Shown here one piece after another: positions 14,030-39,198 of a stretch of DNA of 49,197 nucleotides; position 1 is the stretch's first letter; every line of letters starts with the position of its first letter. The notes beneath the pieces were generated by a model that did no database searches, was not told where the DNA came from, and worked only from the letters and a program-made list of their open reading frames with translations. The stretch lies in sequence record OM475427. One strand, 5' to 3'. Source of the DNA: Escherichia phage D2. The position numbers and the translations under genes are program-made.

Positions 14030-14034
14030 ATCCC

Positions 14035-18850: not shown

Positions 18851-18855
18851 GTGGG

Positions 18856-20874: not shown

Positions 20875-21300
20875 ATGGAATTACAGGACTGGCGAAAAGA
20901 ACCTCGTAAAAACTATTCGAATGAATTCAAACTTCGTATGGTGGAACTGGCATCACAACCTGGAGCTTGTGTTGCACAGATTGCACGTGAAAATGGCGTC
21001 AATGATAATGTTATTTTCAAATGGCTCAGGCTCTGGCAGAACGAAGGGCGTGTTTCGCGGCGTCTTCCGGTAACGACCTCTTCTGACACTGGCGTTGAAT
21101 TATTACCTGTAGAAATAACGCCGGATGAGCAGAAAGAACCTGTGGCGGCCATTGCGCCGTCTTTATCCACTTCCACTCAGACCAGAGTCAGTGCCAGTTC
21201 CTGCAAGGTGGAATTCCGTCACGGTAACATGACGCTGGAAAATCCATCGCCAGAGCTGCTCACAGTGTTGATCCGTGAACTGACCGGGAGGGGAAGATGA
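20875..21300 (+). CDS. tnpA: IS66 family accessory protein TnpA (orf1)
   Basis: 141 aa; HTH-containing N-terminus (NYSNEFKLRMVELASQPGACVAQIARENGVNDNVIFKWL) typical of IS66 orf1. Confidence 0.85.
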   Translation: MELQDWRKEPRKNYSNEFKLRMVELASQPGACVAQIARENGVNDNVIFKWLRLWQNEGRVSRRLPVTTSSDTGVELLPVEITPDEQKEPVAAIAPSLSTSTQTRVSASSCKVEFRHGNMTLENPSPELLTVLIRELTGRGR

Positions 21301-21647
21301 TCTCACTCCCATCAGGTACCCGTATCTGGCTCGTTGCCGGCGTTACCGATATGCGTAAATCCTTCAACGGACTGGGAGAACAGGTACAACATGTGCTGAA
21401 TGATAATCCCTTCTCCGGTCACCTGTTTATCTTCCGTGGCCGACGGGGTGACACCGTCAAAATTCTTTGGGCTGATGCTGATGGTCTGTGCCTGTTCACC
21501 AAACGCCTGGAGGAAGGCCAGTTTATCTGGCCTGCGGTACGTGACGGCAAGGTATCCATTACCCGCTCGCAACTGGCAATGCTCCTCGATAAGCTGGACT
21601 GGCGTCAGCCAAAAACATCCAGCCGTAACTCACTGACAATGTTGTAA
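21297..21647 (+). CDS. tnpB: IS66 family accessory protein TnpB (orf2)
   Basis: 116 aa; MISLPSGTRIWLVAGVTDMRKSFNGLGEQVQ... characteristic IS66 Orf2; 4-nt overlap with tnpA. Confidence 0.85.
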   Translation: MISLPSGTRIWLVAGVTDMRKSFNGLGEQVQHVLNDNPFSGHLFIFRGRRGDTVKILWADADGLCLFTKRLEEGQFIWPAVRDGKVSITRSQLAMLLDKLDWRQPKTSSRNSLTML

Positions 21648-21677
21648 AAAACTCCTGACCGCATTATAAAAACGGTC

Positions 21678-23277
21678 ATGAGTCAGAAATACCTCATTCG
21701 CATCGCAGAGCTGGAAAGGTTGCTCTCTGAGCAGGCTGAAGCCCTCCGTCAGAAAGACCAGCAACTGAGTCTGGTTGAAGAGACGGAAGCCTTCCTGCGC
21801 TCTGCACTGACACGTGCCGAAGAAAAGATCGAAGAAGATGAACGGGAAATAGAACATCTGCGGGCTCAGATAGAAAAACTGCGCCGGATGCTGTTCGGTA
21901 CCCGTTCTGAAAAACTGCGTCGTGAAGTTGAACTGGCTGAGGCTCTGCTGAAACAACGTGAACAGGACAGCGATCGTTACAGTGGGCGGGAAGACGATCC
22001 TCAGGTTCCCCGCCAGTTGCGACAGTCGCGCCATCGTCGTCCGTTACCGGCACACCTTCCCCGTGAAATACACCGCCTGGAGCCAGAAGAAAGCTGTTGC
22101 CCGGAGTGTGGCGGTGAGCTGGATTATCTGGGGGAAGTCAGCGCTGAACAGCTGGAACTGGTGAGCAGTGCCCTGAAAGTGATCCGCACAGAACGGGTAA
22201 AAAAAGCCTGTACAAAATGTGACTGTATTGTTGAAGCACCGGCGCCGTCCCGCCCGATAGAGCGTGGTATCGCGGGCCCCGGATTACTTGCCCGCGTGTT
22301 AACGGGAAAATACTGCGAACATCTGCCACTGTATCGTCAGAGTGAAATCTTTGCCCGCCAGGGTGTCGAACTGAGCCGGGCCTTACTCTCCAACTGGGTT
22401 GACGCGTGCTGCCAGTTAATGACACCGGTGAATGATGCCCTGTACCGTTATGTAATGAATACCCGCAAGGTTCACACTGATGACACACCGGTAAAGGTAC
22501 TGGCACCGGGTCAGAAAAAGGCGAAAACAGGGCGTATCTGGACGTATGTCCGGGATGATCGCAATGTGGGTTCGTCATCTCCTCCAGCGGTCTGGTTCGC
22601 GTACTCGCCGAACCGGCAGGGGAAACACCCGGAGCAACACCTCCGCCCCTTCCGGGGTATCCTGCAGGCGGATGCGTTCACAGGTTACGACAGGTTGTTC
22701 AGTGCAGAACGTGAAGGTGGTGCACTGACAGAAGTTGCGTGCTGGGCCCATGCCCGGCGAAAAATCCACGATGTATACATCAGCAGCAAAAGTGCGACGG
22801 CAGAAGAAGCCCTGAAGCGAATCAGTGAACTGTACGCCATCGAGGATGAAATACGGGGATTACCGGAGTCAGAGCGTCTTGCGGTCAGGCAGAAGAAGAG
22901 CAAACTGTTACTGGACTCACTGCATGCATGCATGGTGGAGAAAAATGCCACGCTATCCAAAAATCCAGACTGGGAGAATGGTTCAGCTGTGTACTGAATC
23001 AGTGGGGCGCACTCTGTTATTACAGTGTTGACGGTCAGGCGGAGGCAGACATAATGCCGCGGAAAAAGCCCTTTGTGCCATCTGTCTCGGAAATAAAAAC
23101 TTTATGTTCTTCGGCGGCGAGCGCAGTGCACTGTTGTATGGGCTTATCGGCACTTGCCTTCTGAACGNNATNGATCCGGAAGCGTATCTGCGCCATATNC
23201 TGAGCATACTGCCGGAATGGCCCTCCAACCGTGTTGACGAACTCCTGCCATGGAACGTAGTTCTCACCAATAAATAA
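21678..23277 (+). pseudogene. tnpC: IS66 family transposase TnpC, interrupted by two frameshifts
   Basis: Frame 0 ORF 21678-22997 (439 aa, coiled-coil N-terminus, zinc-finger CPECG), continues in another frame (KSRLGEWFSCVLNQWGALCYYSVDGQAEAD) and then a third (NAAEKAL..FMFFGGERSALLYGLIGTCLLN..YLRH.LSILPEWPSNRVDELLPWNVVLTNK*). The shifts at ~22955 and ~23045 are not at n positions. Confidence 0.7.
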
Positions 23278-23442
23278 GCGTCAATACGGTGCTCCGTTGA
23301 CGCTTACTTTAATCCGTTTTCTGAGCTTAGATTTTTCTGTTCCTACCCAGACCGTGGATTTGGAATTCATTTTTTGTCAGGTCAATGCTAATCGTTAAAA
23401 CGGCCATAACGCACCTCCACTGGAAGGTTTATCAGAGGTCGT

Positions 23443-23721
23443 ATGAAAGATTTAACTTTGAAGTTTCATGACAAACTGCAGTTTAAGGCCTTCCTGTCAT
23501 CTCTTGGCTGGGCGGAAGATGAAGACCTCCAGAATAAACTGTTAGTTGATGAAATTGGTTTCACCTACACAGAAACAGGGGTAACAGAAGAGGGAGAACC
23601 TGTCTGTATCCGGAATGATGGTTATTTTGTCAACATTCGCATTCTTGATGACTTGTTTGATGTTTCTGTATTCTCTGATTATGTCGTGGAGCTGGAAACA
23701 CCGCTTCGGGAATGGAGCTGA
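23443..23721 (+). CDS. Hypothetical protein (92 aa)
   Basis: ORF with ATG start between IS66 and sitD; no family recognised. Confidence 0.3.
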   Translation: MKDLTLKFHDKLQFKAFLSSLGWAEDEDLQNKLLVDEIGFTYTETGVTEEGEPVCIRNDGYFVNIRILDDLFDVSVFSDYVVELETPLREWS

Positions 23722-23733
23722 AAGGAGGAAATA

Positions 23734-24027
23734 ATGGATATAAGCCCCTTACTTCATGCACTTTGTGCTGTGGCTGCGCAGATACTGGTTGGTCTTTTTA
23801 CCGGAAACTGGGCTTACGGAGCGATAGCCGGTTGTACGTTCTTCATTGCGCGTGAACATACCCAGGCAGAATATCGCTGGATTGAAATGTTCGGGCATGG
23901 CAAGCGAATGAATATGCCGTGGTGGGGCGGTTTTGATCCGCGAGCTTGGGATGTGGCAAGCCTGATGGATTTTGCTGTGCCGGTGGTGGCGTGTCTGCTG
24001 GTCTGGCTGTTGGTTAATCGTGGGTGA
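23734..24027 (+). CDS. Hypothetical membrane protein (97 aa)
   Basis: ORF with hydrophobic segments; preceded by GGAGG-like RBS (aaaggaggaaataATG); no family recognised. Confidence 0.3.
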   Translation: MDISPLLHALCAVAAQILVGLFTGNWAYGAIAGCTFFIAREHTQAEYRWIEMFGHGKRMNMPWWGGFDPRAWDVASLMDFAVPVVACLLVWLLVNRG

Positions 24028-24119
24028 AAAAAGGTGANCTGNANATNGCAACGGAGGAAGAAACCNCGTTGCTGGAAGCCNGGAANAAGTATCGGGTGTT
24101 GCTGNNCTCGGATGTTGTG

Positions 24120-24977
24120 CTAATTGGGTGATAACAGATCCTGTGTATGGGAGTTTCCCTTTTTGCGTGCGTTGATGCTGGTAACGGCAAACGTCATGAT
24201 GAACAAAACCGCGAATAAGACGACAATCGTCGGAGCTGGTGCGCTGTCGATAAAAAAGGACAACCAGACACCAGTCATTGACACTATTACCGATATGCCA
24301 GTCGCCAGTAGGAGCGCAATATGAAAGCGTTGTGTCAGGAGTACCGCAATGGCGCCAGGCGCAATGAGCAGAGAAATGGAGAGAATGATACCTACCGCTT
24401 TCAGCGTCGCCACAATGGTCAGAGAGACCATGCACAGCAGCCCATAATGCAGCCATCTCGTATGCAAACCGCTTACCTGCGCCTGTTGATAATCAAAGCT
24501 GAACAGCAAAAAATCCCGCCATTTTACGCTAATAACAAGTGTAACCAGCCCGGCAATAANCATCGTCTGGATTATATCGCCGATGGTTATCCCGAGCATG
24601 TCGCCGAANAGAATATGGTCAAGATGTNCGTCTGGTTTGACTGCAATATACAAGATCAGANCTGCGGCAAACATGCCAGANAANACNATCCCCATCACTG
24701 TATCTTGCTTGATTCGGCTGTTGTCTTTCAGGTATCCCGTCGCCACCGCGCAGAATACTCCGGCGACGAATGCCCCTGTAGCCAAAGGTAACCCCAGAAT
24801 CCAGGCAAGCACGATGCCAGGAAAAACCGCATGACTCATCGCGTCACCCATCAGTGCCCAACCTTTCAGGACCAGAAAGACCGACAGCAGCGCACAGGGT
24901 ATGGAAACTACCAGTGAAATCAGCAGTGCGTGACTCATAAAGGTGAACTGCAGTGGCTCCAGTAATAATGCCATCAT
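24120..24977 (-). CDS. sitD: Mn/Fe ABC transporter permease SitD (contains ambiguous bases)
   Basis: 285-aa polytopic membrane protein, paralogous to the upstream permease; several n/X positions. Confidence 0.85.
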   Translation of the reverse strand: MMALLLEPLQFTFMSHALLISLVVSIPCALLSVFLVLKGWALMGDAMSHAVFPGIVLAWILGLPLATGAFVAGVFCAVATGYLKDNSRIKQDTVMGXXXSGMFAAXLILYIAVKPDXHLDHIXFGDMLGITIGDIIQTMXIAGLVTLVISVKWRDFLLFSFDYQQAQVSGLHTRWLHYGLLCMVSLTIVATLKAVGIILSISLLIAPGAIAVLLTQRFHIALLLATGISVIVSMTGVWLSFFIDSAPAPTIVVLFAVLFIMTFAVTSINARKKGNSHTQDLLSPN

Positions 24978-25831
24978 GAGCGATCCTCCAGCGCCTTATG
25001 CGCACGCCGACGATTTGCCAAAAGCCCATGGGTGGGCGCAAAGACAAATGCTAAAAGAAACAGCAGTGTCTGCGCCACCACGATGATTCCACCTGTCGCG
25101 CCGTCCAGAAAGTAACTGACCCACGCGCCGAGGAAACTGGTTACACTGCCAATAGTTACAGCAATCATGAGCAGGCGGGGAAAACGATCGGTTAACAACC
25201 ATGCTGTTGCACCGGGAGTCACCACCAGACAGATCACCAGAAAGGCACCAACCGTTTGCAGCGCCGCAACGGTCGAAACCGACAGCAGGGTGAAGAAGAG
25301 GAGTTTTAATCTGCCCGGATGCAATCCAATAGCACGGGCGTGATTCTCGTCGAAAAAGGTCACCATAAGATCTTTCCATTTGAAAAAAAGCACGATGATC
25401 GAGAGAATGCCAATGATAGTGAGTTGCAGGATATCCGCCGGATCGATTGCCAGAATATTGCCCAGGACGATGGTCTGAATGTTCACAGATGTCGGGTTCA
25501 ATGACACCATAAACAGCCCCAGGCCAAAAAAGGACGAGAAGATCAGACCGATGATGGCATCTTCTTTTAAGCGGGTGCGTTGGTTAAGAAACAGCATGCT
25601 GCCCGCAGCCAGTCCGCCGGAAAAGAAGGCTCCCAGAGAAAACGGAAGCCCCAGCATATATGCCCCCGCAACACCCGGGACAATAGAGTGCGACAACGCA
25701 TCGCCAATCAGCGACCAGCCTTTTAGCATCAGATAGCATGACAGGAAAGCGCAGAGACCGCCGACCATCGCCGAGACCCACATCGCATTGAGCATATATT
25801 CATAGCTGAAGGGTTCCAGTAGCACGTTCAT
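24974..25831 (-). CDS. sitC: Mn/Fe ABC transporter permease SitC
   Basis: 285 aa, ABC-3 family permease; 4-nt overlaps with sitB and sitD. Confidence 0.9.
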
Positions 25832-26655
25832 CTTTCTTCCCTCTGCACCGCTGACGGTCGATGAGCCACAAAAGGGCGTTCATCGTCAGTAATAATGCTT
25901 TCTTCCGAGCCGTTAAGTGTGACATGGCGCAGTACGCCGCTAAAAGCCAGCTCTAGGTTCTCGGCTGTAAAAGTGGTGTCTGTCGGCCCGCTTGCCAGGA
26001 CGGTGCCTTTGACCATGACCGTATAATCGCAAAATGTCGTGACGGATCCGAGATTGTGTGTTGAGACAAGCATCGTTTTGCCTTCCGCGCGTAACTCCCT
26101 CAACAGGCTGATGATTTTGGCTTCGGTTTTCACATCAACGCCAGTAAAAGGTTCATCCAGCAGGATCACATCACCCTGCTGTGCAATCGCTCTCGCCAGA
26201 AAGACGCGTTTCTTTTGTCCACCGGAAAGCTCGCCGATTTGTCGATGGCGAAAATTCACCATATCGACACGTTCCAGCGCATCGGTGACAATTTGACGAT
26301 CCCTCTTTTTGGCGATACGCAACATACCCATATGCCCATAGCGGCCCATCATCACCACATCTTCCACCAGTACAGGAAATGACCAGTCAACCTCTTCTGA
26401 CTGAGGGACGTAGGCAACCAGGTTTTTCTGTAACGCCTGTCGCGTGGGAATACCCAGAACAGATATCTTTCCGCTGGTCAGACGCACAAATCCCATAATC
26501 GCTTTAAACAACGTCGATTTTCCGGAACCGTTTACCCCAACCAGAGCGGCAATAGATCCACTTGGTACTGTGAAGGATGCATCGCGCAGTGCTGTGTGCC
26601 CGTTATGCCAGGTGACAGCAACATCATTAACGACAATGCCTGCAGATTGCATCAT
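25828..26655 (-). CDS. sitB: Mn/Fe ABC transporter ATP-binding protein SitB
   Basis: Walker [13 protein letters not shown] signature LSGGQKKR, Walker B ILLDEP. Confidence 0.9.
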
Positions 26656-27569
26656 TATTTCTCCCTTTTCCCGGCTTTAATTCCCTGTACCAGCGTACTG
26701 GTAGTAACCTTAAGAAGGTCGATATACGTCGGTACCGGGCCGTTTTCTGTGCTCAGGGAATCGACATAGAGCACACCGCCGTAGTGTGCGCCGGTTTCAC
26801 GCGCAACCTGACGCGCTGGTTTATCGGAAATCGTACTCTCGCTAAAGACTGCCGGGATATGATTTTTCTTAACTATATCAACAACCTTACGTACCTGCTG
26901 CGGTGTTCCTTGTTGATCGGCATTAATCGGCCACAGATAAAGCTCTTTTAGCCCCAAATCGCGTGCGAGATAAGAAAAAGCCCCTTCACTGGTGACCATC
27001 CATCGCTGATTCTCAGGGAGTTCCGTAATCTGCTTACGCAGGGGGGCAAGGGTTTGGGTAATCTTGGCTTTATAAGTATCGGCATTGCGTTGGTAGGTTT
27101 GTGCATTTGCCGGATCGTATTTTATCAACGCATCACGAATATTATCGACGTAAATCAGAGCATTATCTGGCGACATCCATGCATGGGGGTTAGGTTTGCC
27201 CTCATAGGGTCCTTCGGTGATCCCTACAGGCGTCACACCCGAAGAGACAATTACTTCTGGAACCCCATTGAGATGCTGGTAAAAGCGTTGGAACCACAAT
27301 TCCAGATTCATACCATTGGCGAGAATCAGTTGTGCCCCCTGCGCACGTTTAATATCGCCAGGGGTAGGCTGATACTCATGAATTTCTGCACCAGGCTTGG
27401 TTATGGATGAGACTTCTGCAGCATCTCCCGCCACGTTTTTGGCCATATCCGCGATGATGGTAAATGTTGTAATGACCTTAAATTTTTCAGTTGCACTTGC
27501 CTGAAATGCGATCGAGCAGGTGAGTGCGAGGCCCCCCAAGAGCATGGTTACTTTTTTTATTGAGCGCAT
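26655..27569 (-). CDS. sitA: Periplasmic Mn/Fe-binding protein SitA
   Basis: 304 aa with signal peptide; cluster-9 metal-binding protein, first gene of a sitABCD-type operon. Confidence 0.9.
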
Positions 27570-27601
27570 AATTTAGTACCTATAGTGAGCAAAATTAGAA
27601 C

Positions 27602-27623
27602 AAACATAGCAACGGCTATGTTT
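27602..27623 (-). promoter_or_regulatory. MntR box upstream of sitA
   Basis: Perfect inverted repeat AAACATAGC-N4-GCTATGTTT about 33 bp upstream of the sitA start, matching the E. coli MntR operator pattern. Confidence 0.6.
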
Positions 27624-27645
27624 TATAGCATAACCTATACAGAAT

Positions 27646-27664
27646 GAAAATGATTATCATTAAC
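27646..27664 (-). promoter_or_regulatory. Fur box upstream of sitA
   Basis: GAAAATGATTATCATTAAC matches the Fur consensus GATAATGATAATCATTATC at 16 of 19 positions. Confidence 0.55.
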
Positions 27665-27762
27665 ATCTTTGAGGCCCAAAACAGGGATTAGTTTGTTTCC
27701 TGCTGGATGAAAGGACTCTTGGGATAGCACATGCCGCACGAAGAGCAGCATTACATGATGTT

Positions 27763-28002
27763 TTGTCGAATGAGCTACGAATCCTGATAGAAATACGAAA
27801 CAAGCTAGCACATGGACAATGGATCTATCCCTTCAATAATGAAGGAAATACTGTGGACCCTGATAAATATAAATTAATCAATAAAGAAAACTTGCAGTCA
27901 CTCCAATTCAAATATTCATTAGCACAGCATTTAGTTGACGCTGTACATGATTTGGTTGTAAGTCCTACGACATTCGAACGAGATTTCGAAAGCCATTTTT
28001 AA
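27763..28002 (+). CDS. Hypothetical protein fragment with HEPN-like Rx4HG motif
   Basis: 79-aa ORF with a TTG start only; contains IRNKLAHGQW (R-x4-H-G) reminiscent of HEPN/Abi families; AT-rich surroundings. Possibly a gene remnant. Confidence 0.25.
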   Translation: MSNELRILIEIRNKLAHGQWIYPFNNEGNTVDPDKYKLINKENLQSLQFKYSLAQHLVDAVHDLVVSPTTFERDFESHF

Positions 28003-28366
28003 AAATTATATCAAGTACGAACAAACTTAGTGACAAAAGACTACGAAAAATATAAAACAATTTTAGTATTAAGTAGAGAGAAATTTCGTTCTGCTAGGAC
28101 GCAGCAATAGGTTCATGAGATTCTCTGATACTTGTTACCTTAGTAAGCCTTAAATTTTTAAAAATTCTTTTACGTCCACTCCTCGCTCATAACAGGCATT
28201 AACTACATTTATCTTCATTGGCTATGCAAGTCGTAATAAAAGGTGGGACAAAACTGAGACACATAAGCTCTCACAAAGGTCTGCAAGGCCTCACATGTAT
28301 TGAGATGTTAATAAAATGTAGACTTGTAATTTTGATATAAATGGTAGATAAAACCTTTCCCCACCC

Positions 28367-28647
28367 CTGGTGCAAACATCGGTGACGAATGCGCCCTGTT
28401 TGAAGCCACCCACGGTACTGCGCCGAAATATGCCGGTCAGGACAAAGTAAATCCTGGCTCTATTATTCTCTCCGCTGAGATGATGCTGCGCCATATGGGT
28501 TGGACTGAAGCGGCTGACCTGATTGTTAAAGGTATGGAAGGCGCAATCAATGCCAAGACCGTAACTTATGACTTCGAACGTCTGATGGAAGGCGCTAAGC
28601 TGCTGAAATGTTNCGAGTTTGGCGACGCGATCATCAAGAACATGTAA
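28367..28647 (+). pseudogene. icd: 3' fragment of icd (isocitrate dehydrogenase), last ~93 codons, at the phage attachment site
   Basis: Translation [92 protein letters not shown] matches the Icd C-terminus; upstream sequence is unrelated to icd. Confidence 0.85.
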
Positions 28648-28671
28648 TCACTACATGTGTTAAATATTTAA

Positions 28672-28698
28672 ACGGGCGTGTTATACGCCCGTTGTTTT
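28672..28698 (+). terminator. Rho-independent terminator after the icd 3' end
   Basis: Hairpin ACGGGCGTG-TTAT-ACGCCCGT followed by TGTTTTAT. Confidence 0.5.
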
Positions 28699-28753
28699 AT
28701 GATGATGTAAAATCTTCCCCAAAACTTTCCCCAAAACNNNNNNTGGCTATTTT

Positions 28754-29896
28754 CTATGCTGTTTTGATATCTACGATAATCCAGTCTTTACCACGATCAT
28801 CATTGTATCGGTCGGTCATTTTTCTGGATTTATGGCCTAACAACTTTTGCGTATCCAGACCCTGTTCCCGATATAACCGTTCTGACAGAGATCGCTGCTC
28901 ATGAAATGTGGGCGCAGTTCCTTGCTCCCATTTTATGCCACATTTTTCCCTGGCCTTTTTAAAAGCCGTTGTCAGAGTATTCGCAGAAACCTGGTCTCCT
29001 CTGTTTGCTTGAGAGGTTGTGTGACGGTAATGGACCAGATATTTACTAACAACAGCATCCCTGCACTGAGATATAACTTCACGAAGGGTAATATTCAGAG
29101 CATCGCATTTCAGGTTAAGCGGAATAGCAAGTTTTGAACCGGTTTTTTCCTGAGTAATGTGCAACATGTCGTCCCAGATATCAGAGAATTTCAAATTGCA
29201 GATATCGCCTAAACGTTGTCCAGTAACAAGAGCAAGTAGCATGCCGCATTTTAAATAGGGCTGCCGTCTGCTTACGCTTTCAAATATTGCCTGCCATTCG
29301 GGCAGTGATAATCTTTGGCGGTTTACTCGATTTCGCGGTTGTTTTGTTGCCTGCGCTGGGTTAAATCCTGGCGGAACATGTCCTGCGTGTTGTGCTTCTT
29401 TGAAGACGTCGATTAACACCATTCTCACGACTTGCGCCATCCTGTTATGACCTTCAGCCTTTACAGCATCAATTATTTCGGCAATATCAAGTGCGGTAAT
29501 ATCCTTGAGGTGTTGCATTCCACAATGCTCACGGAAAAGACGAATGGGTTTGCCTTTTTGCCGATAGGAGTTGGGTCTTAGTTCATTATGTTGCAGCCTG
29601 TCCTCCTGGATAGAAATATATTTATCAAGCCATTCTGTCACCGTAATGTCTGAGCGCCTGCCTTTCATTCTTTCCAGACGCTCATTGACGCTTAATATTT
29701 GTCGGGTACGTTGTTCAGCAATAATGGTATTTGCTTCAGTAGCAACTTGTTTTGCTTCATTCNCATCAGTTCCTAAGCTATGAAAACGACCGGATAGTGG
29801 ATGTTTGTATTGCCAATATACCTTTCCGGTTCGCTTATCTAATTTGCAATATAAATTGGGTATAGAGATTTTGTGAGATCGGGGTCTAGCAGCCAT
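28754..29896 (-). CDS. int: Tyrosine site-specific integrase (e14 IntE-like)
   Basis: 380 aa; C-terminal catalytic region with conserved R..HxxR..Y (LLGHKSRKMTDRY); 3' end converges on the icd fragment. Confidence 0.9.
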   Translation of the reverse strand: MAARPRSHKISIPNLYCKLDKRTGKVYWQYKHPLSGRFHSLGTDXNEAKQVATEANTIIAEQRTRQILSVNERLERMKGRRSDITVTEWLDKYISIQEDRLQHNELRPNSYRQKGKPIRLFREHCGMQHLKDITALDIAEIIDAVKAEGHNRMAQVVRMVLIDVFKEAQHAGHVPPGFNPAQATKQPRNRVNRQRLSLPEWQAIFESVSRRQPYLKCGMLLALVTGQRLGDICNLKFSDIWDDMLHITQEKTGSKLAIPLNLKCDALNITLREVISQCRDAVVSKYLVHYRHTTSQANRGDQVSANTLTTAFKKAREKCGIKWEQGTAPTFHEQRSLSERLYREQGLDTQKLLGHKSRKMTDRYNDDRGKDWIIVDIKTA

Positions 29897-30122
29897 CAGC
29901 GATTATCCGTTGGAGTTTTGGGTTTGCGTTTATTGGGAGTTGCGGTTCTGCAAGCGTTCCTACAAAACGGGAATTTCGGTCAATCATCCAGTAGCGACCA
30001 ACTTTTATAGCGGGTGGGGCCATCATTTTCCCTTGCGCGTATTTTTTCAGAACTCGCTCACTTGGTGCTAAGTCCCCAAATTCTTCTTTAGCCCAGTCCT
30101 GTAAAGTGATTAGTCGAGACAT
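29886..30122 (-). CDS. xis: Excisionase / AlpA-like DNA-binding protein
   Basis: 78-aa ORF directly upstream of and overlapping int by 11 nt, in the excisionase position. Confidence 0.6.
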   Translation of the reverse strand: MSRLITLQDWAKEEFGDLAPSERVLKKYAQGKMMAPPAIKVGRYWMIDRNSRFVGTLAEPQLPINANPKLQRIIADGC

Positions 30123-30261
30123 TTGTCCTCCTCTTAGCTGCTGAGGGAGTTTGTGACCGATATATCTGACATGATATTAAGCTCATGGCAGGTACATCTC
30201 TTGACTGGTCATAGAGATAAATTTAATGCTGAGAAATGCAGTATTGAATTTATCAAATTTT

Positions 30262-30549
30262 CTATTTCCTGCGTATGGCACGTAACTTCTTAATGTGTTC
30301 TGCCGTTTCGATCTCTTCTGCTATCCGATCTGCATCAGCTTTATTCACAGGTTCAAAGTCATGATTAAAGCGGACGTTCTCCTGGTCGCGGCGTTTGATG
30401 TATTGCTGGTTTCTTTCCCGTTCATCCAGCAGTTCCAGCACAATCGATGGTGTTACCAATTCATGGAAAAGGTCTGCGTCAAATCCCCAGTCGTCATGCA
30501 TTGCCTGCTCTGCCGCTTCACGCAGTGCCTGAGAGTTAATTTCGCTCAC
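30262..30549 (-). CDS. Hypothetical early protein (95 aa)
   Basis: Acidic ORF in the xis-to-exo early region; overlaps the upstream gene by 4 nt. Confidence 0.4.
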   Translation of the reverse strand: MSEINSQALREAAEQAMHDDWGFDADLFHELVTPSIVLELLDERERNQQYIKRRDQENVRFNHDFEPVNKADADRIAEEIETAEHIKKLRAIRRK

Positions 30550-30767
30550 TTCGAACCTCTCTGTTTACTGATAAGTTCCAGATCCTCCTGGCAACTTGCA
30601 CAAGTCCGACAACCCTGAACGACCAGGCGTCTTCGTTCATCTATCGGATCGCCACACTCACAACAATGAGTGGCAGATATAGCCTGGTGGTTCAGGCGGC
30701 GCATTTTTATTGCTGTGTTGCGCTGTAATTCTTCTATTTCTGATGCTGAATCAATGATGTCTGCCAT
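30546..30767 (-). CDS. DksA/TraR-family C4 zinc-finger protein
   Basis: 73 aa with CxxC..17..CxxC (CCECGDPIDERRRLVVQGCRTCASC). Confidence 0.6.
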   Translation of the reverse strand: MADIIDSASEIEELQRNTAIKMRRLNHQAISATHCCECGDPIDERRRLVVQGCRTCASCQEDLELISKQRGSK

Positions 30768-30817
30768 CTTTCATTAATCCCTGAACTGTTGGTTAATACG
30801 CTTGAGGGTGAATGCGA

Positions 30818-30843
30818 ATAATAAAAAAGGAGCCTGTAGCTCC
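30818..30843 (-). terminator. Putative rho-independent terminator in the leftward early operon
   Basis: On the minus strand, hairpin GGGAGCUACAGGCUCC followed by UUUUUUAUUAUU. Confidence 0.4.
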
Positions 30844-30865
30844 CTGATGATTTTGCTTTTCATGT

Positions 30866-31048
30866 TCATCGTTCCTTAAAGACGCCGTTTAACATGCCGA
30901 TTGCCAGGCTTAAATGAGTCGGTGTGAATCCCATCAGCGTTACCGTTTCGCGGTGCTTCTTCAGTACGCTACGGCAAATGTCATCGACGTTTTTATCCGG
31001 AAACTGCTGTCTGGCTTTTTTTGATTTCAGAATTAGCCTGACGGGCAA
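30866..31048 (-). CDS. Lambda orf60a-like protein
   Basis: 60-aa ORF; sequence recalled as lambda orf60a (MPVRLILKSKKARQQFPDKNVDD...). Confidence 0.5.
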   Translation of the reverse strand: MPVRLILKSKKARQQFPDKNVDDICRSVLKKHRETVTLMGFTPTHLSLAIGMLNGVFKER

Positions 31049-31178
31049 TGCTGCGAAGGGCGTTTTCCTGCTGAGGTGTCATTGAACAAGTCCCATGTCG
31101 GCAAGCATAAGCACACAGAATATGAAGCCCGCTGCCAGAAAAATGCATTCCGTGGTTGTCATACCTGGTCTCTCTCAT
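30993..31178 (-). CDS. Lambda orf61-like protein
   Basis: 61-aa ORF; overlaps neighbours as in the lambda orf61/orf63 cluster. Confidence 0.45.
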   Translation of the reverse strand: MRETRYDNHGMHFSGSGLHILCAYACRHGTCSMTPQQENALRSIARQANSEIKKSQTAVSG

Positions 31179-31350
31179 CTGCTTCTGCTTTCGCCACCAT
31201 CATTTCCAGCTTTTGTGAAAGGGATGCGGCTAACGTATGAAATTCTTCGTCTGTTTCTACTGGTATTGGCACAAACCTGATTCCAATTTGAGCAAGGCTA
31301 TGTGCCATCTCGATACTCGTTCTTAACTCAACAGAAGATGCTTTGTGCAT
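31159..31350 (-). CDS. Lambda orf63-like protein
   Basis: 63-aa ORF, MHKASSVELRTSIEMAHSLAQIGIRFVPIPVETDEEFHTLAASL... Confidence 0.5.
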   Translation of the reverse strand: MHKASSVELRTSIEMAHSLAQIGIRFVPIPVETDEEFHTLAASLSQKLEMMVAKAEADERDQV

Positions 31351-31501
31351 ACAGCCCCTCGTTTATTATTTATCTCCTCAGCCAGCCGCTGTGCTTTCAG
31401 TGGATTTCGGATAACAGAAAGGCCGGGAAATACCCAGCCTCGCTTTGTAACGGAGTAGACGAAAGTGATTGCGCCTACCCGGATATTATCGTGAGGATGC
31501 G

Positions 31502-32182
31502 TCATCGCCATTGCTCCCCAAATACAAAACCAATTTCAGCCAGTGCCTCGTCCATTTTTTCGATGAACTCCGGCACGATCTCGTCAAAACTCGCCATGTA
31601 CTTTTCATCCCGCTCAATCACGACATAATGCAGGCCTTCACGCTTCATACGCGGGTCATAGTTGGCAAAGTACCAGGCATTTTTTCGCGTCACCCACATG
31701 CTGTACTGCACCTGGGCCATGTAAGCTGACTTTATGGCCTCGAAACCACCGAGCCGGAACTTCATGAAATCCCGGGAGGTAAACGGGCATTTCAGTTCAA
31801 GGCCGTTGCCGTCACTGCATAAACCATCGGGAGAGCAGGCGGTACGCATACTTTCGTCGCGATAGATGATCGGGGATTCAGTAACATTCACGCCGGAAGT
31901 GAATTCAAACAGGGTTCTGGCGTCGTTCTCGTACTGTTTTCCCCAGGCCAGTGCTTTAGCGTTAACTTCCGGAGCCACACCGGTGCAAACCTCAGCAAGC
32001 AGGGTGTGGAAGTAGGACATTTTCATGTCAGGCCACTTCTTTCCGGAGCGGGGTTTTGCTATCACGTTGTGAACTTCTGAAGCGGTGATGACGCCGAGCC
32101 GTAATTTGTGCCACGCATCTTCCCCCTGTTCGACAGCTCTCACATCGATCCCGGTACGCTGCAGGATAATGTCCGGTGTCAT
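31502..32182 (-). CDS. exo: Lambda exonuclease (Red-alpha)
   Basis: 226 aa, near-identical to lambda Exo ([65 protein letters not shown]...). Confidence 0.95.
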
Positions 32183-32964
32183 GCTGCCACCTTCTGCTCT
32201 GCGGCTTTCTGTTTCAGGAATCCAAGAGCTTTTACTGCTTCGGCCTGTGTCAGTTCTGACGATGCACGAATGTCGCGGCGAAATATCTGGGAACAGAGCG
32301 GCAATAAGTCGTCATCCCATGTTTTATCCAGGGCGATCAGCAGAGTGTTAATCTCCTGCATGGTTTCATCGTTAACCGGAGTGATGTCGCGTTCCGGCTG
32401 ACGTTCTGCAGTGTATGCAGTATTTTCGACAATGCGCTCGGCTTCATCCTTGTCATAGATACCAGCAAATCCGAAGGCCAGACGGGCACACTGAATCATG
32501 GCTTTATGACGTAACATCCGTTTGGGATGCGACTGCCACGGCCCCGTGATTTCTCTGCCTTCGCGAGTTTTGAATGGTTCGCGGCGGCATTCATCCATCC
32601 ATTCGGTAACGCAGATCGGATGATTACGGTCCTTGCGGTAAATCCGGCATGTACAGGATTCATTGTCCTGCTCAAAGTCCATGCCATCAAACTGCTGGTT
32701 TTCATTGATGATGCGGGACCAGCCATCAACGCCCACCACCGGAACGATGCCATTCTGCTTATCAGGAAAGGCGTAAATTTCTTTCGTCCACGGATTAAGG
32801 CCGTACTGGTTGGCAACGATCAGTAATGCGATGAACTGCGCATCGCTGGCATCACCTTTAAATGCCGTCTGGCGAAGAGTGGTGATCAGTTCCTGTGGGT
32901 CGACAGAATCCATGCCGACACGTTCAGCCAGCTTCCCAGCCAGCGTTGCGAGTGCAGTACTCAT
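32179..32964 (-). CDS. bet: Recombination protein Bet (Red-beta)
   Basis: 261 aa, lambda Bet ([66 protein letters not shown]...). Confidence 0.95.
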
Positions 32965-32969
32965 TCGTT

Positions 32970-33386
32970 TTATACCTCTGAATCAATATCAACCTGGTGG
33001 TGAGCAATGGTTTCAACCATGTACCGGATGTGTTCTGCCATGCGCTCCTGAAACTCAACATCGTCATCAAACGCACGGGTAATGGATTTTTTGCTGGCCC
33101 CGTGGCGTTGCAAATGATCGATGCATAGCGATTCAAACAGGTGCTGGGGCAGGCCTTTTTCCATGTCGTCTGCCAGTTCTGCCTCTTTCTCTTCACGGGC
33201 GAGCTGCTGGTAGTGACGCGCCCAGCTCTGAGCCTCAAGACGATCCTGAATGTAATAAGCGTTCATGGCTGAACTCCTGAAATAGCTGTGAAAATATCGC
33301 CCGCGAAATGCCGGGCTGATTAGGAAAACAGGAAAGGGGGTTAGTGAATGCTTTTGCTTGATCTCAGTTTCAGTATTAATATCCAT
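32970..33386 (-). CDS. gam: Gam, RecBCD inhibitor
   Basis: 138 aa, lambda Gam ([76 protein letters not shown]...). Confidence 0.9.
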
Positions 33387-33484
33387 TTTTTATAAGCGTC
33401 GACGGCTTCACGAAACATCTTTTCATCGCCAATAAAAGTGGCGATAGTGAATTTAGTCTGGATAGCCATAAGTGTTTGATCCAT
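33341..33484 (-). CDS. kil: Kil (FtsZ-targeting host-killing protein)
   Basis: 47 aa, [47 protein letters not shown], matching lambda Kil; overlaps the gam start by 46 nt as in lambda. Confidence 0.85.
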
Positions 33485-33549
33485 TCTTTGGGACTCCTGG
33501 CTGATTANNTNTNNNNAANGNGTTTCCATCCGTCACGTAATTTACGCAT
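33451..33549 (-). CDS. cIII: cIII-like protein (N-terminally different from lambda; interrupted by n bases; boundaries approximate)
   Basis: Minus-strand ATG preceded by AGGAG, reading MRKLRDGWK..., matching the lambda cIII core (ITRKLRDGWKRLIDILNQ). An n run (33508-33521) interrupts the reading. Confidence 0.45.
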
Positions 33550-33824
33550 AAAAACTCCTGCCCGTAAGCTGGGCTGCTGAACATATAGAGACTTCTGCGC
33601 GTATTCAGGCGGTGGATGGCCGCCGGTTGTCATAACTAAGCCGCCTCGTTGAAGCGACTGAGGTATGAGGTGTTGAGTTGATTTCAGCTGGTCACACCGA
33701 CGTTCACGCGTCCGCTTCACCCCTCGCACTCCCCGGAGCCTGCTGAAATTCAAGCTGCGGATCTAAGCGGTCATCGCAACGGTGAATCAGGTGATTGCCG
33801 TATCGTTGTGTTGTTGCGACATGG

Positions 33825-33945
33825 TGATAATAGCTATTGTTATTGGCTGTATCAATACTTATTGCTATTGATTGATGTGTTTTGATATTAACTGTTTGAT
33901 AGCAAAAAGAATTAATTTTGTGACTTGTATCGCATAGCGATAACT
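33825..33945. promoter_or_regulatory. Putative leftward early promoter/operator region (OL-like)
   Basis: Contains GCTATTGTTAT (33833-33843) and TTGCTATTGAT (~33862-33872), motifs that recur in the cI-cro intergenic region, plus palindrome TATCGCATAGCGATA (33928-33942). Lies between the cIII-like gene and the cargo cassette. Confidence 0.35.
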
Positions 33946-33990
33946 GAAGGGAGGATGTGGTGGTTTTTCGAACGGTTTGTGTGATGAGGG

Positions 33991-34020
33991 GACAAAAGAA
34001 AACCCGGCACGGTGGCCGGG
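33991..34020 (-). terminator. Rho-independent terminator downstream of the ASCH gene
   Basis: On the minus strand, hairpin CCCGGCCACCGUGCCGGG followed by UUUUCUUUUGU, immediately after the stop of ORF 34025-34402. Confidence 0.5.
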
Positions 34021-34024
34021 ATTC

Positions 34025-34402
34025 TTACGCAGGTAGGTAAAGATATGATTGTGGTGGCTTAATATTACTACCTAGAGCAGAGATAGGAATTGGTTCTTTA
34101 TATCTTTCCACTTCACCAATTTTTATTGCGTAGGCCTTTTCTCTACCTGAATAATATGAGTCATAAAATTGCTTAGAAATACCTGCGTGTTTTTCCGTCT
34201 TTTTCCAAAGAGATTCCGGTTCGTCACTTAGTATTGATTCAATACGGAATTGACCAACAACTTTACCTAATGGCATCGTGGCATAAATAACAACGGTGCT
34301 AATTTGCGGATTTTTGAATATACCTTTACGAAACTCGAACCGCTTTGTTCCGTTCAATATTTTTTCTGCAAACTCAGGCTTAATGGATAATAAAACTTTC
34401 AT
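34025..34402 (-). CDS. ASCH-domain protein (125 aa)
   Basis: N-terminal G-x-K-x-x-E-x-R motif (NGTKRFEFRK) characteristic of ASCH/PUA-like domains; AT-rich; overlaps the upstream gene by 23 nt. Confidence 0.6.
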   Translation of the reverse strand: MKVLLSIKPEFAEKILNGTKRFEFRKGIFKNPQISTVVIYATMPLGKVVGQFRIESILSDEPESLWKKTEKHAGISKQFYDSYYSGREKAYAIKIGEVERYKEPIPISALGSNIKPPQSYLYLPA

Positions 34403-35453
34403 TTATCTTGCCTAACTCGATGATCTTTAAGAACTGCTCATTTGTGAGTTTAAAGTGACTCCATCGGAATGCACGCGAACCATTTAGCCCCACATGATCT
34501 ATTAAAATAGCACGATTGGGTCTCTTTGGCAAAGACAGATTGTATGTGAATCTTATAATGAAAGGGTATCGACGTTCTTTATAGATTTTTCTGAGTTCAT
34601 CTTCAGAAAATACGCTAAAACGAATACAATAGTCTACAAAACTATCTTCGCTTAAAAATTCAGAAATATTTTTTACGCTCTCAACTACACATAATGTACT
34701 GGCTACAGAACGATAGCGAGCTGGCCCTTTTTTGTCTCCGGTTCTATAGATGACAATGATATCTCCTCTTTTCATTCCCATCACAGAACGCATTCCACAT
34801 ATGTAAATTTTATGAATGCTGTTAGCATGGGATATATCTTTGACAATATCTGGTGATTCATTTACAAGTTTTGAATCAGGGAATAGTCTAGTGTGATATT
34901 CGGGATAAATCGCCAGTAAATATTTGTTGGCCCTTGATGTCATTATTCGAGGGTAATCTAATAAAATATCACCATAAGGCTCATGCAAAGACCTCGCATA
35001 TACAAACTCTTTCCCGTTATGTGTTTCTTTTTCACCATGAATGTAAAATCCGTACGTTTGGAAAAGTTTTATTAGATGGACGTGTTTGTCGAAAACAGTA
35101 ACATAAATATCATCAGATTTTGATGAAAATGCATGGTCAAACGCTTTTTTTAGAAATCGTTGTCCGCGAAGGGTGCCTTTAGATTCAAATTTGAATGTTC
35201 CTATCTTTAGATGACGTCCTGGTGGGAGCGCTGGATTAATGTCATTTGCATCATCATTTTCTTTTAGATACATAAAACCTTCGATTTTATGCTTGTCATC
35301 ATAGAGCACATAAGCTGATTCTCCTTCTCTGGCTTTTTTTTCTAACCAAAGAGGAAACTCTTTATAATCTTTTTTTAAAGAGTCAAAAAATGGGTCATTG
35401 TGATCAAAATCAGAGAATTTCTCATATTTTAAAGTATCCATTAAGTTCTCCAT
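34380..35453 (-). CDS. Hypothetical 357-aa protein, possible GNAT-like N-terminal region, unknown C-terminal domain
   Basis: Long AT-rich ORF directly downstream of cI on the same strand. Weak acetyltransferase-like motif (KGTLRGQRFLKKAF..VTVFDKHVHLIKLFQTYGF). C-terminal half has a D..ExK-like pattern (GDIIVIYRTGD..LCVVESVK). No confident family assignment. Confidence 0.45.
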   Translation of the reverse strand: MENLMDTLKYEKFSDFDHNDPFFDSLKKDYKEFPLWLEKKAREGESAYVLYDDKHKIEGFMYLKENDDANDINPALPPGRHLKIGTFKFESKGTLRGQRFLKKAFDHAFSSKSDDIYVTVFDKHVHLIKLFQTYGFYIHGEKETHNGKEFVYARSLHEPYGDILLDYPRIMTSRANKYLLAIYPEYHTRLFPDSKLVNESPDIVKDISHANSIHKIYICGMRSVMGMKRGDIIVIYRTGDKKGPARYRSVASTLCVVESVKNISEFLSEDSFVDYCIRFSVFSEDELRKIYKERRYPFIIRFTYNLSLPKRPNRAILIDHVGLNGSRAFRWSHFKLTNEQFLKIIELGKINESFIIH

Positions 35454-35521
35454 TCTAAAATGAATAATTAAGTTGTTTTACTGAATGAGCACAATGCCCG
35501 GTTGATAATTTTTAATTGGTA

Positions 35522-36214
35522 CTATCCATGCTTCCTATACGTCTGCGGCATGCTCCCAATAACTTTCCCGAAGATAAATACCCGGTTCATCTCATCTTTC
35601 TCGATCGGGTCCCACGGTGAGTAGCTTTTGTTATCAGAGATAACCAGCAGCTTATCCTTCATCATTTGCAGGCGCTTTACATGGGCTGTGTCGTCGTACA
35701 GAAACGCATAGATACCATCACCGTCGAAAGATTTAACCGTGATATCAACGAATAGAAGATCACCAGGTTCAATCGTTCCTGACATGCTGTCACCGCGTAC
35801 GTTAATGATGCGGATATTTTCTGCCTTCCTACCATCGAACATGTGACGAGCATCGTCAAACGAGTACTCAACCGAGCGTAGAACTTCTACAAACTCACGG
35901 TTGATGACTCCCGGCCCGGCACTCACTTCTATATCAAGAACGTCAATCTTGAAGTATTTGGGATGGTTGGCAGTAGGCTTCCCTAATTGTTGACCGTCAT
36001 TTCTCATCGGGCCTATGCCTGATGAGAGCCACTCTGTTCGAACACCCAATGCATTAGCTATTTCAACAATTTTTGTTGAGCCGCGCGCGTTGCCGCTTGT
36101 CAGTCTCCAGATTGTGGGTTGAGCTACGCCAGACGCCTTTGCAAGAGCGCCTTGAGACATTCCAGATTGTTCCATCGCTAGGTTTAAGCGATCAGCAAGA
36201 GTTTCTTTTTTCAT
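35522..36214 (-). CDS. cI: CI-like prophage repressor (HTH plus LexA/S24 peptidase-like domain)
   Basis: N-terminal HTH (MSQGALAKASGVAQPTIWRL) and C-terminal S24-like domain with GDSM (Ser) and VKRL (Lys) motifs. ATG at 36214 preferred; the ORF track extends to a TTG at 36250. Divergently placed against cro. Confidence 0.85.
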   Translation of the reverse strand: MKKETLADRLNLAMEQSGMSQGALAKASGVAQPTIWRLTSGNARGSTKIVEIANALGVRTEWLSSGIGPMRNDGQQLGKPTANHPKYFKIDVLDIEVSAGPGVINREFVEVLRSVEYSFDDARHMFDGRKAENIRIINVRGDSMSGTIEPGDLLFVDITVKSFDGDGIYAFLYDDTAHVKRLQMMKDKLLVISDNKSYSPWDPIEKDEMNRVFIFGKVIGSMPQTYRKHG

Positions 36215-36324
36215 AAGTTTTAATTTATACGCTTGCGTATTGATGGTCAAAACACGTTTTGCTATTGTTATGATTAATACGCATTGCTATTATTTATTCA
36301 TTGTAATACCAATAGGAATTAATA
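36215..36324. promoter_or_regulatory. Putative OR/PRM-PR operator-promoter region between cI and cro
   Basis: Perfect palindrome ATACGCTTGCGTAT (36227-36240), related ATACGCATTGCTAT (36277-36290), and GCTATTGTTAT (36261-36271) / TTGCTATTAT (36284-36293), shared with the OL-like region. Confidence 0.45.
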
Positions 36325-36552
36325 ATGACAAATCAAACCATTCAACTCGCAATCAGTATTACAGGTAGTCAAAAACGACTGGCAGATCTATGCGGTGTAG
36401 CCCAGCCCACTGTTTGGCGTTGGCTACACGGTGGCGGAATTGATGCCCGCTATGTAATGAAAATTGTCTCAGCCACTGGTGGAAAGATTAAACCAGCAGA
36501 TATTCGTCCCGACCTCGCACCATTGTTTAACGCGAGTAATTCTGCCGCCTAA
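36325..36552 (+). CDS. cro: Cro-like HTH regulator (YdaS family)
   Basis: 75 aa, HTH (SQKRLADLCGVAQPTVWRWLHGG), divergent from cI. Confidence 0.7.
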   Translation: MTNQTIQLAISITGSQKRLADLCGVAQPTVWRWLHGGGIDARYVMKIVSATGGKIKPADIRPDLAPLFNASNSAA

Positions 36553-36576
36553 TCTGCGGCGTTAACTGATAAGGCA

Positions 36577-37122
36577 ATGACTATGCAACCACTTACATAC
36601 CAACAGACTAGCGGATTTAGCCCGACTGCGGTGATAAATCGTTCTCAAACAAAACAGGCGCCAGGCCACGAAAAAATCCGTGATGCCGTTCGCGCCTGGT
36701 CGGCTGCAGATAATCAGGATGTTGTTGCCGCACTCATTGTGAATGAGTATCGGGAGCAGGGCGGCGGCACCATCGATTTTCCTGATGATGTCAGCCGTGC
36801 ACGCCAGAAGCTGTTCCGCTTCCTCGATAACAAATTCGATTCTGAAAAATACCGAAATAACGTGCGTGAACTGACCCCGGCAATTCTGGCGGTACTACCG
36901 CTGGAATATCGCGGCCACCTGGTTGAGCAGGATAGCTTCATGGCTCGGCTGGCTGAAATGGAAAAGGAACTCAGTGAGGCAAAACAGGCTGTCATTCTCA
37001 ACGCACCACGCCACCAGAAACTGAAGGAGATGAGTGAAGGCATTGTGTCGATGTTTCGTGTGGACCCGGATCTGGCTGGTCCACTGATGGCGATGGTCAC
37101 CACCATGCTGGGGGCAATATGA
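36577..37122 (+). CDS. YdaT-family protein in the cII position
   Basis: 181 aa; EYREQGGG and LTPAILAVLPLEYRGHL resemble Rac prophage YdaT (EYLRQGGG, LIPAILAILPRELRHRL); located right after cro. Confidence 0.55.
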   Translation: MTMQPLTYQQTSGFSPTAVINRSQTKQAPGHEKIRDAVRAWSAADNQDVVAALIVNEYREQGGGTIDFPDDVSRARQKLFRFLDNKFDSEKYRNNVRELTPAILAVLPLEYRGHLVEQDSFMARLAEMEKELSEAKQAVILNAPRHQKLKEMSEGIVSMFRVDPDLAGPLMAMVTTMLGAI

Positions 37123-37208
37123 CAGGTTCGGAAATGGCGAAAGCCGGTCTGCGCGAACAGAACCGACTTTCAGGTGCAAATCGTAACACACTCATTGCGG
37201 GAGGAATT

Positions 37209-38140
37209 ATGGCAAACACTGCTGAGATATTCAATTTTCCAGTGCCGGATGTGGCACAAAAGGAGCCGCGCGTGGCAGATCTCGATGATGGTTATACGCG
37301 CATTGCAAATGAGTTGCTGGAAGCTGTGATGCTGGCCGGATTAACACAGCACCAGCTTCTGGTCTTCCTGGCTGTCATGCGCAAAACATATGGCTTTAAT
37401 AAAAAACTGGATTGGGTGAGCAACGAGCAACTTTCCGAGTTGACCGGGATATTGATTCTCAACTTAGCGAGATTACAAAGTTACCTGTCAAACGGTGCAA
37501 TGAAGCCAAGTTAGAACTCGTCAGAATGAATATTATCAAGCAGCAAGGCGGCATGTTTGGACCAAATAAAAACATCTCAGAATGGTGCATCCCTCAAAAC
37601 GAGGGAAAATCCCCTAAAACGAGGGATAAAACATCCCTCAAATTGGGGGATTGCTATCCCTCAAAACAGGGGGACACAAAAGACACTATTACAAAAGAAA
37701 AAAGAAAAGATTATTCGTCAGAGAATTCTGGCGAATCCTCTGACCAGCCAGAAAACGACCTTTCTGTGGTGAAACCGGATGCTGCAATTCAGAGCGGCAG
37801 CAAGTGGGGGACAGCAGAAGACCTGACCGCCGCAGAGTGGATGTTTGACATGGTGAAGACTATCGCACCATCAGCCAGAAAACCGAATTTTGCTGGGTGG
37901 GCTAACGATATCCGCCTGATGCGTGAACGTGACGGACGTAACCACCGCGACATGTGTGTGCTGTTCCGCTGGGCATGCCAGGACAACTTCTGGTCCGGTA
38001 ACGTGCTGAGCCCGGCCAAACTCCGCGATAAGTGGACCCAACTCGAAATCAACCGTAACAAGCAACAGGCAGGCGTGACAGCCAGCAAACCAAAACTCGA
38101 CCTGACAAACACAGACTGGATTTACGGGGTGGATCTATGA
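37209..38140 (+). pseudogene. O: Replication initiator O, split by a frameshift at a ~30-bp imperfect tandem duplication
   Basis: N-terminal part (ORF to 37514) is a diverged O N-domain. C-terminal part (ORF 37412-38140) matches lambda O from DSQLSEITKLPVKRCNEAKLELVRMNIIKQQGGMFGPNKNISEWCIPQNEGKSPKTRDK... in a different frame. The junction has two adjacent homologous copies (SNEQLSELTG / DSQLSEITK). Confidence 0.7.
37588..37720 (+). repeat. ori-lambda: four iterons plus AT-rich region inside O
   Basis: ATCCCTCAAAACGAGGGA, AAATCCCCTAAAACGAGGGA, ACATCCCTCAAATTGGGGGA, CTATCCCTCAAAACAGGGGGA, then ACAAAAGAAAAAAGAAAAGATTATTCG, matching the lambda origin. Confidence 0.85.
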
Positions 38141-38838: not shown

Positions 38839-39125
38839 CGGGCAAAGAGGCAATTATTCATTACCTGGGGACGCATAATAGCTTCTGTGCGCCGGACGTT
38901 GCCGCGCTAACAGGCGCAACAGTAACCAGCATAAATCAGGCCGCGGCTAAAATGGCACGGGCAGGTCTTCTGGTTATCGAAGGTAAGGTCTGGCGAACGG
39001 TGTATTACCGGTTTGCTACCAGGGAAGAACGGGAAGGAAAGATGAGCACGAACCTGGTTTTTAAGGAGTGTCGCCAGAGTGCCGCGATGAAACGGGTATT
39101 GGCGGTATATGGAGTTAAAAGATGA
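38835..39125 (+). CDS. ren: Ren
   Basis: 96 aa, lambda Ren (MTGKEAIIHYLGTHNSFCAPDVAALTGATVTSINQAAAKMARAGLLVIEGKVWRTVYYRFATREERE...). Confidence 0.9.
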   Translation: MTGKEAIIHYLGTHNSFCAPDVAALTGATVTSINQAAAKMARAGLLVIEGKVWRTVYYRFATREEREGKMSTNLVFKECRQSAAMKRVLAVYGVKR

Positions 39126-39150
39126 CCATCTACATTACTGAGCTAATAAC

Positions 39151-39180
39151 AGGCCTGCTGGTAATCGCAGGCCTTTTTAT
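39151..39180 (+). terminator. tR2-like rho-independent terminator
   Basis: Hairpin AGGCCTGC..GCAGGCCT followed by TTTTTATTT immediately after ren. Confidence 0.5.
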
Positions 39181-39198
39181 TTGGGGGAGAGGGAAGTC

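Follow-up and report, generated by a model that had tools for sequence, protein, structure and literature searches.

Phage 21 and the e14 element of Escherichia coli K-12 share an attachment site within icd, the gene for isocitrate dehydrogenase, but their integration and excision specificities differ, as set out in an essay by Campbell (PMC3530522). In K-12, the boundary of e14 lies 165 nt upstream of the icd stop codon, and the opposite end of the element is marked by icdC, a pseudogene of 165 nt. In the GenBank record of phage 21, an 'ICDH-like' pseudogene for the last 53 residues is annotated together with a terminator and an attP whose three subsites, P1P2P3, have the consensus YYTTCCCCAAAA; the genome announcement of this phage (PMC9119081) does not deal with att. 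The current study deals with the corresponding locus in Escherichia phage D2 (sequence record OM475427; 49,197 nt), which was analyzed over its full length and is referred to as the window. The locus comprises the 3' end of icd, an integrase gene (int) and an excisionase gene (xis). Judged from its sequence, it very probably represents the phage 21-type attP-int-xis module of a lambdoid phage in its vegetative genome, with the icd piece being the phage-borne copy of the gene end. The integration system is the classic icd attachment of phage 21 and e14 and already known, and the phage of the window is a close relative of sequenced isolates.

Our comparison of the deduced proteins showed that Int is identical to its phage 21 equivalent in 377 of 380 residues (99%) and Xis in all 78 of 78 (100%), whereas Int shares only 60% identity with IntE of e14, and the module is therefore assigned to the phage 21 type rather than to the e14 type. 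The int product matches the Pfam families Arm-DNA-bind_1 (E-value 6.8e-28) and Phage_integrase (1.2e-23), and xis is located directly upstream of int with an overlap of 11 nt with the int start. The P' arm repeats are in accordance with this assignment. The phage 21-type pattern consists of three YYTTCCCCAAAA copies in the P' arm and a further copy, about 120 nt to the left of the core, in the P arm. The window harbors two exact P' copies, an N run at the position of the third and a clipped P-arm site, whereas the arm repeats at the attL of K-12 are of the TTATCAAAA type. The 60% identity to IntE and the phage 21-type repeats rule out an e14-type module with IntE specificity, and the labels 'e14-type' and 'IntE-like', which an earlier note on this DNA had chosen from the sequence alone, are correct in principle only. 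The e14 element (intE, xisE, icd/icdC) resembles the window in the use of the same attB in icd, the 165-nt replacement end and the icdC remnant at attR, but its integrase gene is separated from icd by about 3.3 kb that include ymfD, ymfE and lit. The names of Schneider, Campbell and co-workers are reportedly linked with the attP-int-xis of phage 21. A single cII-box-like motif, TTGCAGACCTTTGT (TTGYN6TTGY), is present at 28273-28286 on the minus strand, in the b region downstream of int; cII binding sites are annotated in the corresponding part of the phage 21 record, and according to Campbell, int is controlled by cII from downstream sequences.

Translation of positions 28369-28647 (+) results in 92 residues and a stop codon, and 89 of the 92 match residues 325-416 of Icd from E. 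coli K-12; one X in this translation stems from an N at 28613. The fragment covers the last 86 positions of the Pfam profile Iso_dh (263-348 of 348; E-value 3.9e-24). At the DNA level, identity with icd begins at 28364 and the matches to phages end at 28363, which corresponds to a fragment of 284 nt, and int is oriented convergently with a gap of 106 nt between the two stop codons. The close association of an icd 3' fragment with an integrase and an excisionase, as proposed in the earlier note, is thus borne out by sequence, translation, Pfam profiles and the identity to phage 21, with small corrections of the size (281 bp and ~93 residues in the note) and of the spacing (107 bp) of the adjoining, convergent integrase gene. 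The lack of the remaining icd sequence in front of the fragment was likewise noted correctly, and positions 23434-28363 represent the b region of phage 4A7 with 99.66% identity. The canonical replacement end (Table 1) has the same extent in the ICDH pseudogene of phage 21 (OL657228), at the e14 boundary of K-12 and in icdC. The fragment possesses its own terminator, as had been claimed, which consists of a hairpin at 28671-28693 (-17.7 kcal/mol, z = -3.3) and a T run. Its loop (28678-28686) reads GTGTTATAC and is inverted between identical stems relative to all compared copies, namely, those of phage 21, 4A7, K-12 icdC and a lysogen attL, which read GTATAACAC. An exact match of the inverted loop was not found in IMG/VR, and it could reflect a real flip of the hairpin or a consensus error.

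The earlier note had recommended an alignment of icd 3' ends to define the att core and to decide which copy is phage-derived. Our alignment took in the window, phage 21, 4A7, the attL and attR (icdC) of K-12 and a lysogen attL, and allowed us to bracket the crossover and to recognize the fragment as the phage-borne copy. Identity between phage and host starts at 28484 and the first single-nucleotide polymorphism (SNP) that distinguishes e14 from native alleles is located at 28494, where K-12 attL has the e14 base and K-12 attR the native one; we thus infer from the sequence that strand exchange takes place within the interval listed in Table 1. The palindrome CCATATGG at 28491-28498 overlaps this interval. 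From 28484 to 28610 the alleles are the same as in icdC, and from 28636 onward the sequence is of the phage type, including the terminator flank and the arm sites. The 374-nt stretch from icd to the arm sites, which would represent the attL of the exact phage, has no identical counterpart among the E. coli genomes, and the best match amounts to 97.1%. The sequence TGTTNCGAG at 28611-28616 was considered as a blend of the serine codons TCA and AGC that would prove mixed templates, but one A-to-C change (TCC) would account for it just as well.

Table 1. Features of the icd-int-xis locus in the window of phage D2
Feature	Position	Strand	Remarks
Distal P arm / end of b region	28200-28363	+	Phage-specific, common to 4A7 and phage 21
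Clipped P arm-type site	28355-28366	+	CTTTCCCCA followed by CCC instead of CTTTCCCCAAAA; last three bases lost
Extra icd (host B arm, Icd residues about 324-361)	28364-28483	+	120 nt, identical to the icd B arm of K-12
Canonical phage-borne replacement 3' end of icd	28483-28647	+	165 nt; last 54 codons and stop
Crossover interval (att core)	28484-28493	+	TGCTGCGCCA; putative, deduced from SNPs
Intrinsic terminator (hairpin and T run)	28671-28702	+	Predicted to end the reconstituted icd; annotated in phage 21
P'1 arm-type Int site	28713-28724	+	Exact YYTTCCCCAAAA
P'2 arm-type Int site	28725-28736	+	Exact YYTTCCCCAAAA
N run	28738-28743	+	At the place of P'3 in phage 21 and 4A7
int	28754-29896	minus	380-aa open reading frame (ORF); predicted lambda-family tyrosine integrase of phage 21 specificity
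xis	29886-30122	minus	78-aa excisionase ORF; Pfam Exc (E-value 6.7e-6)

A complete icd directly followed by int-xis at about 98% identity constitutes the attL of thousands of E. coli chromosomes, e.g., NZ_CP076706, which shows that the arrangement is beyond chance and supports the earlier proposal of a phage that inserts at the 3' end of icd and brings its own replacement end. By homology to lambda and phage 21, Int would bind to the YYTTCCCCAAAA arm sites and to a core located where the 165-nt homology starts on the left, and would thereby recombine phage and chromosome at icd. The last 54 codons of icd would be exchanged for the 165 nt and the terminator of the phage, which would keep the gene intact (attL, icd-int-xis), and the displaced native 3' end would persist as a pseudogene at the distal prophage end (attR), comparable to icdC of K-12. 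Xis together with Int would reverse the integration.

The gene order of the window, read from its ORFs and from the annotation of phage 4A7 (LR595864; 49,168 bp), which is nearly collinear, is terminase, head, tail, J, the side tail fiber gene stf, an IS66-family element, sitDCBA, att, int, xis, exo/bet/gam, immunity, replication, nin, Q, lysis and cos. Such an order, with a contiguous attP, is that of the circular map of a vegetative genome and not that of a single prophage. The window is similar in length to 4A7, and its first base, within Nu1, coincides with that of the 4A7 record; no flanking host genes were found in it, and the lambda cosN sequence GGGCGGCGACCT is located at 48865-48876. 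Given a unit-length genome in vegetative order that shares its start base with the 4A7 record, the icd fragment is to be regarded as the phage-borne copy.

The window is nevertheless not trustworthy as the sequence of a single molecule. Blocks that are identical or nearly identical to lambda (7497-18553, 99.99%; 18674-19396, 100%; 30375-33546, 99.65%; 37454-39291, 100%; 48677-49197) alternate with 4A7-like blocks (99.5-100%), such as 33547-37454 with 100% identity, and the whole looks like a hybrid of lambda and a 4A7-like phage or a consensus of mixed templates. The sequence contains 34 runs of N. Those at 33508-33521 and 47444-47454, the two that were examined closely, lie 30-40 nt from a block switch, and Ns at 18554, 18673 and 48688-48691 adjoin block switches. 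The idea that N runs mark sites that are polymorphic between lambda and 4A7 was rejected, as they are irregular low-quality stretches 30-40 nt away from the switches. A conspicuous example of the patchwork is the chimera at gene J (18540-19396), in which lambda J up to 18553 is followed by an N, a +1 frameshift, 118 nt of 4A7-type J, the N at 18673, the 3' end of lambda lom and stf. The last ~45 codons of J and the first ~165 of lom are missing, with 723 foreign nt at the place of 725 nt in 4A7, and the chimera is, as read from its sequence, non-functional. About 51 nt of Nu1 are present at both ends of the window (49147-49197 and 1-50), but the allele at the end is lambda-type and that at the start is 21-type; joining the overlapping ends puts Nu1 out of frame, and the circle is thus not cleanly closed. 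In view of a patchwork with non-functional joins, fine-scale oddities of the window, among them the longer icd fragment, should not be accepted as they stand.

The most conspicuous of these oddities is the additional icd sequence upstream of the canonical 165 nt. These 120 nt replace 122 nt of the AT-rich proximal P arm of 4A7 and differ strikingly in GC content (53% versus 18% in the replaced segment). The proximal P arm with its IHF-type sites is absent from the window, which has no match to the IHF consensus WATCAANNNNTTR and contains icd at this position, whereas 4A7 has two such matches and phage 21 has one. The distal P arm is 100% identical to 4A7, 4C10, 1W and 3W up to 28363, where the junction with icd is blunt (CTTTCCCCA followed directly by CCCCTGG) and cuts the single P arm-type site. 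The homologous position of phage 21 and 4A7 is occupied by an exact YYTTCCCCAAAA, whereas the window no longer matches this motif here even if two mismatches are allowed. A microhomology of CCCC at the junction was considered and rejected, since both CCCC runs are present in the window (CCCCACCCC) and the join is blunt. From 28364 to 28610 the sequence is 100% identical to a native attB reconstructed from the attL B arm of K-12 and icdC. The junction probe matched 26 phage records, all of which (26/26) cease to match at 28363, continue with the P arm of 18% GC and possess the canonical 165 nt only. The junction between the distal P arm and icd was found neither by megablast of a junction-centered 151-mer against 50,697 phage records and 5,426 complete E. 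coli genomes nor by exact-pattern searches of IMG/VR, the GTDB representative genomes and the JGI metagenome contigs.

We consider it probable that the extra 120 nt originate from an assembly artefact based on mixed templates. The sample would have contained lambda, a 4A7-like phage and host DNA, and host icd reads would have overwritten the poorly covered, low-GC proximal P arm in a consensus that was scaffolded on a reference or mapped iteratively. This explanation is favored because the junction is unique and blunt, the exchanged segments are of near-equal length (120 versus 122 nt) and other chimeric joins are present in the window. A foreign overlay of equal length on 4A7 coordinates is found both at att and at 18674-19396. 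The absence of a P arm with IHF sites may be due to a faulty sequence and not be a feature of the phage itself. Two observations weigh against an artefact, namely, the lack of any N or ambiguous base at the 28363/28364 junction itself and the phage-type 3' part of the homology (from 28611 on), where host reads might predict host-type sequence.

The alternative that the extra 120 nt are real is possible, if doubtful. An aberrant excision would have taken host icd from the B arm of attL at the expense of the proximal P arm, resulting in an att with an attB-like sequence from -120 to about +127 inside phage arms, like a miniature version of the gal or bio specialized transducing phages of lambda. 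Illegitimate excision gives lambda gal and lambda bio phages with bacterial DNA by the core and a hybrid att of the attL or attR type. If the 120 nt are real, the window is similar to them in that bacterial DNA next to the core replaces a phage arm, but its exchange comprises 120 nt only, is almost perfectly compensated in length, transduces no gene and is of doubtful authenticity. The perfect identity of 28364-28610 with native K-12-type attB fits such an origin, as do a clean junction with no Ns nearby and the SNP mosaic within the 165 nt, which is compatible with repeated lysogeny and crossovers inside the homology. The bluntness of the junction is a further point in its favor, and illegitimate recombination typically leaves blunt junctions. 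On the other hand, none of the searches listed above retrieved this junction from phages, E. coli, IMG/VR, GTDB representatives or JGI metagenomes, the correspondence of 120 and 122 nt would be an unlikely coincidence for random illegitimate breakpoints, and the window contains other chimeric joins that are not of biological origin. An aberrant excisant would moreover not dominate a consensus unless it had been plaque-purified. Aberrant excisants of lambda normally account for about 1e-5 to 1e-6 of a lysate. We thus retain the assembly artefact as the preferred explanation of the extra icd sequence.

The earlier note had left two possibilities for the origin of the fragment, i.e., a phage-borne copy next to attP or a displaced chromosomal remnant between tandem prophages, the first of which is supported by our analysis and the second is not. 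Tandem prophages at icd do exist: E. coli FXCREC028 (NZ_CM135822.1, about 203-256 kb) harbors two tandem copies with identical proteins, one with icd-int-xis at 253.7-256.5 kb and the other with sit, a 168-nt icd pseudogene and int-xis at 203-205 kb. Their inter-prophage junction aligns as an ordinary attP with an AT-rich P arm and 165 nt, which documents that the copy at a tandem junction is phage-borne and not a displaced remnant. It is very improbable that the window represents chromosomal DNA across two such prophages, with the fragment as the junction copy, since it comprises one unit length, has the start base of 4A7 and lacks flanking host genes, and the identity of the fragment would be unchanged in any case, because such a junction is a regular attP with the phage-borne copy. 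We give hardly any credence to a displaced native icd end (an attR remnant like icdC) or a complete icd broken by misassembly, which could draw on the icdC alleles at 28484-28610 but is contradicted by the alignment, as the sequence upstream of 28364 is phage b region and not icd, an attR remnant precedes host genes (iraM in K-12) and not arm sites and int, and the sequence from 28636 on, with terminator flank and arm sites, is of the phage type.

The closest phage records were determined for positions 23000-31000 of the window. Phages 4A7, 3W, 4C10 and 1W are the best matches with 95% coverage and 98.7% identity, followed by phage 21 with 85% coverage and 98.1% identity. Phage 21 (OL657228, M61865) has the 165-nt icd copy, the terminator, the YYTTCCCCAAAA repeats of the P' arm, the convergent int and sitABCD in the upstream b region in common with the window, which differs from it in the 120 nt of icd in place of the proximal P arm, the clipped P site, the N run at P'3, the inverted terminator loop and SNPs within the 165 nt. 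The Bievrevirus isolates 4A7, 4C10, 1W and 3W (LR595864 and relatives) correspond to the window in the start of the record, a length of about 49.2 kb, the IS66-family element, the sit operon and the b region, but possess a normal attP consisting of the 165 nt and a P arm of 18% GC with IHF-consensus sites. The window in turn differs from this group in several blocks that are 99.6-100% identical to lambda.

The b region just left of attP contains a complete sitDCBA operon for an iron/manganese ABC transporter as cargo (23749-27569, minus strand), and phage 21, 4A7 and many icd-integrated prophages of E. coli likewise carry sit beside att. Clusters of N are located within sitD (24560-24687) and near its 3' end (24038-24106). 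The IS66-family element (20875-23300), which follows the side tail fiber gene, comprises three ORFs that are annotated as 'Mobile element protein' in 4A7; the third has 439 aa in the window versus 537 aa in 4A7, and Ns are present at 23168-23199. Additional cargo-like genes are found in the nin/Q region at 39181-39537, 39793-41319, 41669-42712 (minus) and 45222-46304 (minus), and the genes at collinear positions of 4A7 bear the annotations EmrE-like SMR transporter, YbcK, alpha/beta hydrolase and OmpD-like porin.

The locus carries little weight as a discovery, because phage 21 and e14 have long been described as inserting into icd and supplying the gene with a replacement 3' end. Its analysis is useful in two respects: the ambiguity about the icd fragment is settled in favor of a phage-borne attP copy in a module of the phage 21 rather than the e14 type, and the sequence is flagged as a mosaic of blocks that are either lambda-identical or 4A7-like and that include non-functional joins. 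If the extra 120 nt were real, the phage, devoid of IHF sites and with a clipped P site, would be predicted to integrate poorly via Int. RecA- or Red-dependent insertion across the ~284 nt of icd homology would be possible, and lysogeny might be established mainly by this route. The locus would then be a small natural att variant of interest to specialists in site-specific recombination and, with the spacing of the arms preserved, a natural test of the P-arm elements that are needed by the phage 21 intasome.

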